Part shown: positions 25,838 through 29,407 of the stretch, in pieces | How positions within the stretch are numbered: the first letter of the stretch is position 1 | How the letters are laid out: the number at the start of each line of letters is the position of its first letter | From: Candidatus Pacearchaeota archaeon | GTDB lineage: Archaea > Nanobdellota > Nanobdellia > Pacearchaeales > UBA284 | Reading direction: 5' to 3' | DNA length: 37,400 nucleotides | Assembly: GCA_018304245.1 (NCBI GenBank) | Contig: JAGVWO010000001.1 | Location: 1-37,400 of the forward strand | Notes under the pieces: generated by a model | The model's input: only the letters and a program-made list of their open reading frames with translations | Databases searched by the model: none | Told to the model about the DNA's origin: nothing | Position numbers and translations under genes: made by a program

Positions 25838-28800
25838 TTATTTTTTACCCTTGTTTATTGTTTTATTTCCTAGGTTTTCTATTTTCTTAGGAGCTAATGA
25901 GCTTAAATCCTTTTCGGAAAGTTCTACTAAAAGACCTGGAAGGCCTGTTCCAACAGGAACTGGTTGATTTAATATTAAATTTTCAACAACACTGACTAGG
26001 TGATCTGTTGAACCATTAATTGCAGCATTTACAAAATGTTTAATTGGTGTTTCGAAAGATGCTCTTGCCAAAATAGATGATTTATCCTCTATAATTCCTA
26101 TCCTAGTAACTCCTTTGATTTTTCCATTCACAGTCATAGCATCAGCAATAAGTTTTGTGTGTTTTTCACTGATATCAAGCCCCTGTTTTTCAAGAACTTT
26201 TTTAACTTCAACCATGATGGATTCTCTTGCAGCTTCTATACCAAATATTTTTACTATTTCATAAAGATTATTTGTTGTTGTTTTATCTTGGTTTACTTCT
26301 TTTAATTTTAAAACATCTTCTAAATTTGAACCAGCAGTTAAAACAACATATTCATTTTCTCTCTTTACAGGCAATACTTGTTTTATTCCCTTTATTCCAG
26401 AGATCATAATTCCTTTTATTTTTTCTTTTAATTTATATAACTTTTTGAAATCGTCTTCTTTTACTTTTGGAGAAATAGTAATGCTTTCATCATCTTTTCT
26501 CACACTAAGTTCCTTTTCAGCAAGTGCGTTTGCTATTTTTTCACTATTTAAGTGAAATTCTTTCATAGCATCTTTATTTAATTTAACATTAATTTTTCCA
26601 TTATTAAAATCAATAATTATTTCTTTTGCTACATCTATTAATTTAACTTCTTTTATTTTTGCGGCTAATCTTCTTGCACCGTCTTCATTGTTGTGTTCCT
26701 TATCAAGATAGACTTCCATAGATGGTGTTGAAGGGTTCTTTCTTGCATCAAAGATTTCTATCAATCTTGGAAGGCCTGCAGTAACCTGCATCTCAGAAAC
26801 TCCTGCGAAGTGGAAAACATTCAATGTCATCTGCGTAGCTGGTTCTCCAAAGCTTTGTGCAGTGATAACTCCAACAGCTTCTCCTGCAGAAATTTTTCCA
26901 TTTTCTAAATGTTCTTTAGAAACATCTATACCGTCTTCACCATATTCGAATTGAATTACTTGAGCATTTGAATCTCTTACTGTTCCATCATATTCTACCC
27001 TCATATCTTGCAATGCATTTGCTAATCTTCTGTATAAATAACCAGATTTAGGTGTTCTTAATGCTGTATCCATCAGGGAATCTCTTCCAGTAATTGCTGT
27101 AAAGAAAAATTCATCAGGATTTAATCCACTTAAGAAACTACTTTCTACAAATCCACCAGCTCTTGGAGATAAATCATTTTGTTTGTAAAAAGGCAATGTT
27201 CTATTATGATAACCAATATTAATTCTTTTACCCCAAAGGGATTGCTGACCAACTAAGCATGACATCTGGGTTAATTGCAATAAATTACCCCTTGCTCCAC
27301 AAATAGTCATTAAATATGCTGGATTGTCTTTGTTAAGTCCTTTCTTTGCAACTCCACCAATTTTTGTTCTGACTTCGTTTAAAACTTGTAAGATCTTAAT
27401 TTCCCTACTTTCTTCTTCAGTTTTTCCAGGAATAACTTCTAATGATTTGTTATAATATGAATCAATAATTGCATCAACTTTCTTTTCAGAATCTTTTACA
27501 ATTTTTCCAGTTTCATCTTTTACTTCTTTTGTTGTTTTGATGTCTTGTAAAGATAAGGTCAAACCATATTTTGTTAAATATAATATTCCAAGTAAAAAAA
27601 CTTGTCTTAAAAAATTCATGGTTTCGATTCTCCCAACCTGTTTATCTAGTTCCCTAATTAATGCATTTGTTTCAACACCAATGATTTTCTCGTCCATTAT
27701 TCCCGAAATAACTTTTCCATTTTCAATTGAGATGTAAGCACTATTTGGGCAATTTTCTTTTTTACATTTATCATAATAAGGACATTCTTTTCCCTTACAA
27801 CTTTTTGTTTTTGCTTCAAAATTAACCTTAGGCATAATCATTGAAAGAACTTCTCTTCCAGATGGGTTTTCTTTCATTGAAGCAAGTTTATCATCTTTTG
27901 CTCCTGCTAAAATTAAAAGTTGTGTTGCAACTGCTTTTGGAATTTTTTCTTGAGATGTGAGTAAATATAATCCTGTAACAGAATCTTCAACACAACCAAA
28001 TACATTAGCATTAATTTTTGGCGAGATTAAATTTTTTGAAACATCTAATAAAATTTTTGATTCTACTCTAGCTTCTTCAGTTTGTGGGGCGTGAATATTC
28101 ATTTCATCCCCATCAAAATCTGCATTATATGGGAATGCAACTGCTGGGTGAATTCTAAATGTTCTTCCAGGAAGTACTCTTACAGAATGTGCCATTAAGG
28201 ACATTCTATGCAAACTTGGATGTCTGTTAAATAAAACAACATCCTTATCTCGAATATGCCTTTCTACAGTATAGCCCTCTGTAACTTCTTCCATTAATTG
28301 ATCTCTTGTTTCTTCTGTGAGTCTTTTTTTCTTCTCATCTGGTCTAGCAATTCCGGTTGCGCTTGGATAATCTTCTTTTTTTAATAAGGCCTTTAAAGAT
28401 TCTTTATTTTCTGTTGTGACTCTTTCTGGAATAGTTAAAACTCTTGCAACCTCATAAGGAACTCCAACTTCATTTAAACTTAAGAATGGATCTGGACTTA
28501 TTACAGTTCTACTTGAATAATTTACCCTCTTTCCAGCCAAGTTATGTCTAATTCTTCCTTCTTTACCTTTGATTCTTTCAGTAATTGTTTTTAAGGGTTG
28601 CCCACTTCTATGTCTTGCTGGCGGTATATTTGAAATATTATTATCAAAGAATGTTGTAACGTGATATTGTAATAGGTCCCAAAGATCTTCAATAATTACT
28701 TCTGGTGCACCTGCATTAAGGTTTTCCCATAATCTTTGATTACTTCTTACTATATCTGATAATTTGTGTGTTAAATCGTCTTCAGATCTTTCTCCTGTTT

Positions 28801-29407
28801 CTAGGGTGATACTTGGTCTTACAGTTACTGGAGGAACCATTAATAAGGTTAAAACAGCCCACTCTGGTCTGCATGCCCTTGCATTGATTCCTAAGATCTT
28901 AAGATCTTCATCTGAAATTCTAGACAATAATTCTCTTATTTCTGTTGGGAATAATCTTTTTTTGCCGATGTAAAAACTAGAGGGTTTTTCAAGTTTAATT
29001 TTTTCTTGTTCTGCTTTGCAATGTGGACATTTTTTTGCAGTTTTTGCTTTTGCAATTTTTTTATTTTTAACATCTTCTTCAGTAAGTAAAATTCTTCCAC
29101 ATTTTTTACATGTTGCTTTTAAGCATAATTCAATCATTGGTAAGAATTTAATATGTAAAACAGGTCTTGCGATTTCTATAAATCCAAAATGACCAAGACA
29201 AGATTTTAAATCATTTCCACATGTTCTGCATCGTACACCTGGGTTTATAACTCCAAGTCTTAAATCCATTAAACCACCATCAACAGGATATCCATCCATA
29301 TCATACAATTCCGGAGTAACTATCTTTGCGACAGAATATTTTTTAATTTGTTCTGGAGAGAATAAACTAAATTGAATTTCCTTGACTTGTTTTATTAATG
29401 GTATCAT
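25838..29407 (-). CDS. rpoA: DNA-directed RNA polymerase subunit A, with A' and A'' portions fused in one 1189-aa ORF
   Basis: A' landmarks are the zinc region [26 protein letters not shown] and the catalytic [12 protein letters not shown]. The A'' landmarks [29 protein letters not shown] (trigger loop) and [13 protein letters not shown] lie in the same frame. No stop intervenes. Confidence 0.95.
   Translation of the reverse strand: [1189 protein letters not shown]

Follow-up and report, generated by a model that had tools for sequence, protein, structure and literature searches.

Two types of RNA polymerase have been described in Archaea with regard to the largest subunit, an unsplit A type and an A'A'' type (Da Cunha et al., 2017, PLoS Genet 13:e1006810; PMC5484517), and the unsplit gene of Thaumarchaeota has long been known (PMC3852633). 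For Pacearchaeota, the former paper speaks of 'a secondary fusion in Pacearchaeaota' (PMC5484517). The gene studied here comes from this lineage. The window, i.e., the whole stretch of DNA that was analyzed, comprises 37,400 nucleotides of a metagenome-assembled genome (MAG) of a Candidatus Pacearchaeota archaeon (GCA_018304245.1, contig JAGVWO010000001.1, positions 1 to 37,400) and carries rpoA as one open reading frame (ORF) at 25838-29407 on the minus strand. In all likelihood, this is the normal, functional rpoA of a Pacearchaeota archaeon (order Pacearchaeales-like, DPANN), in which A' and A'' were joined in the ancestor of the order. The fusion is real, ordinary for its lineage and already published; the detail added here beyond the literature is the size and position of the accompanying deletion, its conservation across all gene-carrying genomes sampled from the order, and its single origin.

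The gene and its parts are:

25838..29407, minus strand: rpoA, the whole largest RNA polymerase subunit with A' and A'' fused, 1189 amino acids (aa) plus stop (ORF, Rpb1 domains 1-5, rpoA1 and rpoA2 models)
26930..29407, minus strand: A'-homologous part, residues 1-826, up to the conserved YGEDG, with clamp, active site, funnel and bridge helix (TIGR02390, PDB chain alignments)
28091..28126, minus strand: catalytic metal-binding motif of 12 residues, 428-439 (motif position, conservation in homologues)
27005..27112, minus strand: bridge-helix region, residues 766-801 (alignment to yeast Rpb1 at about 810-847)
26885..26929, minus strand: connector of 15 residues, 827-841 (spacing between the flanking motifs compared with split relatives)
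25838..26884, minus strand: A''-homologous part, residues 842-1189 plus stop, with trigger loop, jaw and cleft (TIGR02389, PDB chain alignments)
26798..26884, minus strand: trigger-loop region, residues 842-870, with GEAVGV at its start and FHFAGV at its end (alignment to yeast Rpb1 from 1057 onward)

A preliminary description of the locus, made from the sequence alone, had reported A' and A'' on one uninterrupted ORF of 1189 aa. This was borne out, as translation yielded 1189 codons plus stop with zero internal stops, Rpb1 domains 1-5 were all found in order on the single protein by Pfam (domain 5 at residues 761-1112), and the NCBIfam models for both halves matched. The rpoA1 model TIGR02390 covers residues 6-833 (model positions 2-856 of 867) with a score of 1101.9 bits, which exceeds the curated equivalog cut-off of 1042.55 and assigns this part to A' (Rpo1N), while the rpoA2 model TIGR02389 covers residues 829-1156 (model positions 31-361 of 367; E 2.4e-118). 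The A' part aligns to chains 4qiw_A, 8cro_A and 2waq_A, and the A'' part to 4qiw_C and 8cro_C from residue ~47-50 of these chains; alignment to the latter two and to Rpb1 1057-1155 places the trigger loop and the C-terminal cleft/jaw of A'' (Rpo1C) on the protein. The metal-binding sequence NADFDGD occupies residues 428-434, and N428-D434 are invariant in 43 fused homologues, as are the zinc-binding clamp residues C60, C63, C70, H73, C100, C103, C127 and C130. The name bridge helix for residues 766-801 follows established knowledge of the structure of RNA polymerase II (Pol II). In a search of the organism's own genome (562,556 bp, 87.7% complete, 36 contigs, metagenome-assembled), no second A''-like region was found besides rpoA. 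Since the motifs are invariant in the 43 homologues and the gene is the only copy in the genome, its product would work as a normal largest subunit. The enzyme would then act as an ordinary archaeal RNA polymerase, in which the covalent link would replace the non-covalent contact between A' and A'' and fix their stoichiometry at 1:1.

The junction consists of QFEYGEDG, 15 residues and GEAVG (residues 819-846, nucleotides 26870-26953) and lies close to where a very short junction had been noted beforehand (about 26870-26945). Junction length was defined as the number of residues between the YGEDG motif on the A' side and the PGEAVG motif on the A'' side. This spacing amounts to 15 residues in the window protein, as compared to an A' tail of 13-44 plus an A'' head of 35-59 residues in split relatives from the class; in the sister group of split genes, tails of ~21-28 and heads of 42-52 residues typically add up to ~70-78 residues. 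Pacearchaeota-type fused genes in which both flanking motifs were found have connectors of 14-16 residues, versus 48-84 residues in split relatives, and the distance from the end of the bridge helix to the start of the trigger loop is 49 residues here versus 112 in two split relatives, including Woesearchaeota GW2011_AR15. Not only its length but also the motif of the connector, D-V/I-S/T-K-x-H-L...K-I-x-P-G-E-A, is conserved order-wide. When T. kodakarensis 4QIW is taken as the reference, the alignment stops at about residue 882 of the 906-residue A' and restarts at about residue 47 of A'', leaving the C-terminus of A' (~24 residues) and the N-terminus of A'' (~46 residues) unmatched. The number of missing residues is about 55-65 relative to the nearest split relatives (A' tail, stop codon and A'' head) and ~70 relative to T. 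kodakarensis, close to the 60-80 originally estimated.

The fused and shortened form is not a peculiarity of this genome. From the same order, 30 relatives spanning nine families and 22 further genera were sampled; rpoA is present in 29 of these, and a stop-free match over the junction was obtained in 29 of 29. A class sample of 200 other genomes contained the fused form in 28 of 28 genomes of the same order, while a stop-free match across the junction was found in none of the 172 genomes from other orders of the class. Taken together, all 57 of the 57 other same-order genomes with the gene exhibit the junction-spanning stop-free form. Reported open-frame lengths read through single in-frame stops and cannot alone call a fusion; hence, loci were translated directly, by which 23 fused loci were confirmed as single ORFs of 1145-1207 codons and 18 split loci were likewise confirmed. 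Nearly all of the 120 best matches listed from a search of 5.8 billion proteins have 1130-1220 residues and five domains, and several are named Candidatus Pacearchaeota; the closest named relatives of the window protein are Candidatus Pacearchaeota MAGs. On named GenBank contigs, ~38 Pacearchaeota-type loci are fused with a connector of 14-16 residues and Woesearchaeota-type loci at 52-54% identity are split. The suggestion that the fusion might be a novelty therefore had to be given up, as it is the common state of the order and is documented in PMC5484517, an outcome that the preliminary description itself had listed among those that would speak against it.

The same distribution bears on the question whether two genes were joined by mis-assembly or a stop codon was erased by a base error, a concern that arises because the window comes from a metagenome-assembled genome in 36 contigs. 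We assign a vanishingly small probability to such an artefact: the letter-identical 1189-residue ORF is present on contigs of four ENA assembly records, which are separate and stem from two or more biosamples, the fused form and its conserved 14-16-residue connector recur in the 57 other gene-carrying genomes of the order and on the ~38 named GenBank MAG contigs, and an error would not additionally delete ~60 codons in frame.

Several individual loci in the surveyed material deserve mention in their own right. In one Pacearchaeota-type fused rpoA (L069, CBDUAR010000001.1), an in-frame TAA follows codon 514 (locus nucleotides 2950-2952), which points to either a sequencing error or a defective gene in this MAG. 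In ERZ28563735 (L148, scaffold_1419, locus 682-2481), one of the independent assemblies of the population from which the window comes, rpoB' was called in two pieces (240 and 350 aa) next to an intact rpoA, suggesting a frameshift or stop variant, or an error, in that assembly. Additional fusions within the class initially appeared to be present in G214, G174, G117, G176, G159 and G047 (frames of 1219-1304 codons), and were dismissed upon direct translation, since the A' stop and the A'' start share a frame in these ordinary split genes. An apparent fusion of B' with A in L088 (CAZRQO010000029.1; ORF of 1473 codons) results from a run of 100 N between the genes and was discarded as an artefact. 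In another member of the class with a very small, complete genome in a single contig of 490,885 bp (G040), rpoA' and rpoA'' (L045 and L048) are not adjacent and lie ~70 kb apart. In G202, G156, G212, G138, G121, G090, G127 and L112, which represent several families of the class, the A''-type match resides in frames of 851-915 codons and is split up into additional pieces. This pattern may point to an intein inside rpoA'', comparable to the intein-containing A'' described by model NF011491.

Phylogenetic analysis was carried out to place the fusion, a step recommended in the preliminary description. A first tree was computed by maximum likelihood from 36 A sequences of the class, either fused or concatenated; in it, the fused proteins fall on one side of a branch with 100% support (all branch supports are SH-aLRT values, i.e., from the Shimodaira-Hasegawa-like approximate likelihood ratio test) and form the sister (95%) of a clade of ten split sequences, such that one state change suffices. 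A second tree with 41 rows, rooted on Bathyarchaeota and Nitrososphaera, again recovered the fused Pacearchaeota proteins as one clade (100%), sister with 96% support to a split clade that includes GW2011_AR15. This sister clade is Woesearchaeota-like, and the fused clade is embedded, several nodes deep, in split lineages from the same class. Nesting among split relatives implies that the fusion is a derived trait with a single origin at the base of the order, of which it is a clean synapomorphy. The alternative, namely that the gene is a retained ancestral unsplit A-type gene as in Thaumarchaeota, Korarchaeota and Bathyarchaeota and hence represents a primitive, eukaryote-like state, can draw on the documentation of unsplit A in exactly these groups (PMC5484517; PMC3852633) and on the single ORFs of 1268-1281 codons that we confirmed at Nitrososphaera and Bathyarchaeota loci. 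The junctions of the latter, however, comprise 86-87 residues as opposed to 15 here, the Pacearchaeota clade lies deep among split lineages with a 96% sister relationship to a split clade in the tree rooted on these two taxa, and a stop-free junction occurs in zero genomes from the other orders of the class. We therefore regard retention of an ancestral gene as very improbable.

A joining of A' and A'' in the ancestor of the order would have required adjacent rpoA' and rpoA'' genes to become one. Many split relatives have A' and A'' in one frame with only the stop and 0-3 codons between them, so that joining needs very little change. The favored route would be a single in-frame deletion of ~165-190 nucleotides on the stem of the order, which would have reached from the last ~10 codons of A' across its stop and the short spacer through the initial ~43-50 codons of A''. 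The two ends of the connector resemble parts of the split proteins, as the proximal IDVSK is similar to the start of the A' tail and the distal KIxPGEA to the end of the A'' head, in agreement with a single in-frame deletion that spanned the former border between the genes. The data agree equally well with a two-step route, in which the A'' head would have been lost before the stop codon. The head can be lost without fusion: in G048, 10 plus 22 junction residues are separated by a TGA, and the A'' heads of split Micrarchaeota have just 8-12 residues. G048 belongs to a different order of the class, and its locus (L017, contig G048:C28) encodes an A' of 833 aa and an A'' of 348 aa with one in-frame TGA (reverse complement, ~2700-2790). 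It was considered as an evolutionary intermediate and rejected, because the tree groups it with its own order (G064) and not with the fused clade, so that its trimming is independent. The 15-residue connector takes the place of a small surface module to which the C-terminus of A' and the N-terminus of A'' contribute in other archaea; judged by alignment, the lost module is what remains there of the Rpb1 'foot'.

Some observations weigh against the view that the gene is a normal rpoA that was joined in the manner just outlined. First, the score of TIGR02389, 395.3, lies below the curated cut-off of 420.65, so that the C-terminal part does not qualify as an A'' (Rpo1C) equivalog. This shortfall is explained by the absence of the first 30 model positions, i.e., the deleted N-terminal head of A'', and the A'' homology of this part is beyond doubt despite the score. 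Second, an AlphaFold2 model of the isolated subunit, based on the 43-sequence alignment, has a mean predicted local distance difference test score (pLDDT) of 58.8 and a predicted template modeling score (pTM) of 0.36, with values below 50 for residues 768-877; with such low values around the junction, the model lends no structural support to the 15-residue connector spanning the gap. Third, concerning the order of events, no intermediate between the split and the fused state was found inside the order, and the junction of the sister group is full-length. Finally, we infer the expression of rpoA as a single polypeptide from its sequence and conservation.

Short fused rpoA genes are also present in other DPANN phyla:

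Micrarchaeota clade: L115, L126, L140, L141, L145, L099
Altiarchaeota: L124, L142, L143
Aenigmatarchaeota: L106

In the Micrarchaeota clade, direct translation verified six loci as fused, from four sampled genomes plus A_MIC_10 and MAG LFW-156_1. A stop-free junction match was detected in four of 81 sampled Micrarchaeota genomes, and nine more have short junctions with matches containing a stop. Approximately 12 of 61 sampled Altiarchaeota genomes and one Aenigmatarchaeota MAG likewise yielded a stop-free junction-spanning match. The fused genes of these phyla span 1128-1199 codons and are intermixed with split relatives; in the three cases measured, the junction has 11-22 residues. A literature search with limited coverage of subscription journals retrieved no paper that describes a fused rpoA for DPANN lineages besides Pacearchaeota. 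Given that short fused genes exist in these phyla (L115, L126, L124, L106, L099, L140-L145), an already fused and shortened rpoA might have been acquired horizontally from Micrarchaeota, Altiarchaeota or Aenigmatarchaeota. Yet these genes share only 39-47% identity with the window protein over its C-terminal half, whereas split members of its own class reach 44-53%, and on the tree the fused genes of a given phylum are grouped with split genes from that phylum, with at least five changes between fused and split. Horizontal acquisition thus appears extremely improbable, and an origin of the fusion within the Pacearchaeota lineage is preferred.

For the DPANN as a whole, a more general scenario can be formulated, for which we see roughly even chances: these archaea may be able to do without the Rpb1-foot remnant formed by A' tail and A'' head, and this module may have been repeatedly trimmed or lost, after which genes could have passed from split to fused and back via single stop-codon changes. 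If true, at least four or five independent re-fusions would have taken place (Pacearchaeales, Micrarchaeota, Altiarchaeota and Aenigmatarchaeota), and the Pacearchaeales enzyme, in which 49 residues separate the bridge helix from the trigger loop, would constitute a natural minimal largest subunit.

With regard to its genomic surroundings, rpoA is flanked by the following genes:

29427..31226, minus strand: rpoB', 599 aa, Rpb2 domains 4-7, a separate gene 19 nucleotides upstream of rpoA (Pfam)
31264..32796, minus strand: rpoB'', Rpb2 domains 1-3 (Pfam)
32741..32950, minus strand: rpoH, 69 aa, Rpb5 C-terminal domain, head of the operon (PF01191, E 8.7e-18)
25371..25835, minus strand: gene for an L7Ae/L30e-family ribosomal protein, directly downstream of rpoA (PF01248, E 1.3e-6)

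The longest ORF of rpoB'' begins with a TTG at 32796, while gene callers pick an ATG 19 codons further in, resulting in a protein of 491 aa. The order rpoH-B''-B'-A-L30e is that of the canonical archaeal rpo operon, here with two genes for B and a single one for A; the statement that subunit B is still divided into two genes, rpoB'' with domains 1-3 and rpoB' with domains 4-7 of Rpb2, thus proved correct. A gene of the L7Ae/L30e family is the usual operon neighbor of rpoA''. The downstream protein of this family encoded here has 154 aa and is long for L30e. The next ORF (24946-25359, minus strand, 137 aa) is without a Pfam match even at E 1; archaeal operons usually carry nusA in this position.

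These results have consequences for annotation and beyond. Pipelines that expect rpoA1 and rpoA2 label the gene as A' only, as is apparent from the source names of the protein matches, and may score A'' as missing in Pacearchaeota genomes. Judged from sequence comparison, archaeal RNA polymerase would tolerate the loss of ~60 residues at the boundary between A' and A'', which may be useful for the engineering of single-chain or minimal polymerases.

In comparison with known systems, the window gene corresponds to the secondary fusion in Pacearchaeota in gene, lineage and event, as it combines a stop-free A'+A'' ORF with the respective placement in the tree; the report of that fusion consists of one sentence and a figure (S29 Fig), and neither the deletion of ~60 residues nor the order-wide conservation is described there in words (Da Cunha et al., 2017; PMC5484517). 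All conserved regions of the split Rpo1N/Rpo1C pairs of T. kodakarensis (4QIW A/C), P. furiosus (8CRO) and S. shibatae (2WAQ) can be aligned, and the operon position is the same; the difference lies in one chain instead of two and in the loss of the A' C-terminus (~24 residues) and the A'' N-terminus (~46 residues). The unsplit A-type subunits of Thaumarchaeota, Korarchaeota and Bathyarchaeota likewise combine both halves on one polypeptide. However, they have a full-length junction of 86-87 residues and 1268-1281 codons (Nitrososphaera and Bathyarchaeota) and constitute a distant separate clade with which the window protein does not group, as it resides deep inside a DPANN class.

With eukaryotic Rpb1 and bacterial beta', the protein shares the single-chain connectivity from bridge helix to trigger loop. 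Yeast Rpb1 aligns strongly on either side of the junction (residues 746-880 and 1057-1155), with 176 residues (881-1056) where the window protein has essentially none. In the published nomenclature of Pol II, this stretch of yeast Rpb1 is the 'foot'. In contrast to Rpb1, the protein is devoid of a C-terminal domain (CTD). Of the eukaryote-like, Rpb1-like topology proposed at the outset, only the chain connectivity can be upheld, since the state is derived and nested among split DPANN, and the region lost is the very one that is largest in yeast Rpb1 (881-1056). The resemblance to Rpb1 and beta' is convergent. The short fused rpoA genes of Micrarchaeota, Altiarchaeota and Aenigmatarchaeota, finally, reflect the same kind of event with separate origins in other phyla, and while fused and split genes are mixed in these groups, every sampled genome of the Pacearchaeales that carries the gene has it in the fused form.

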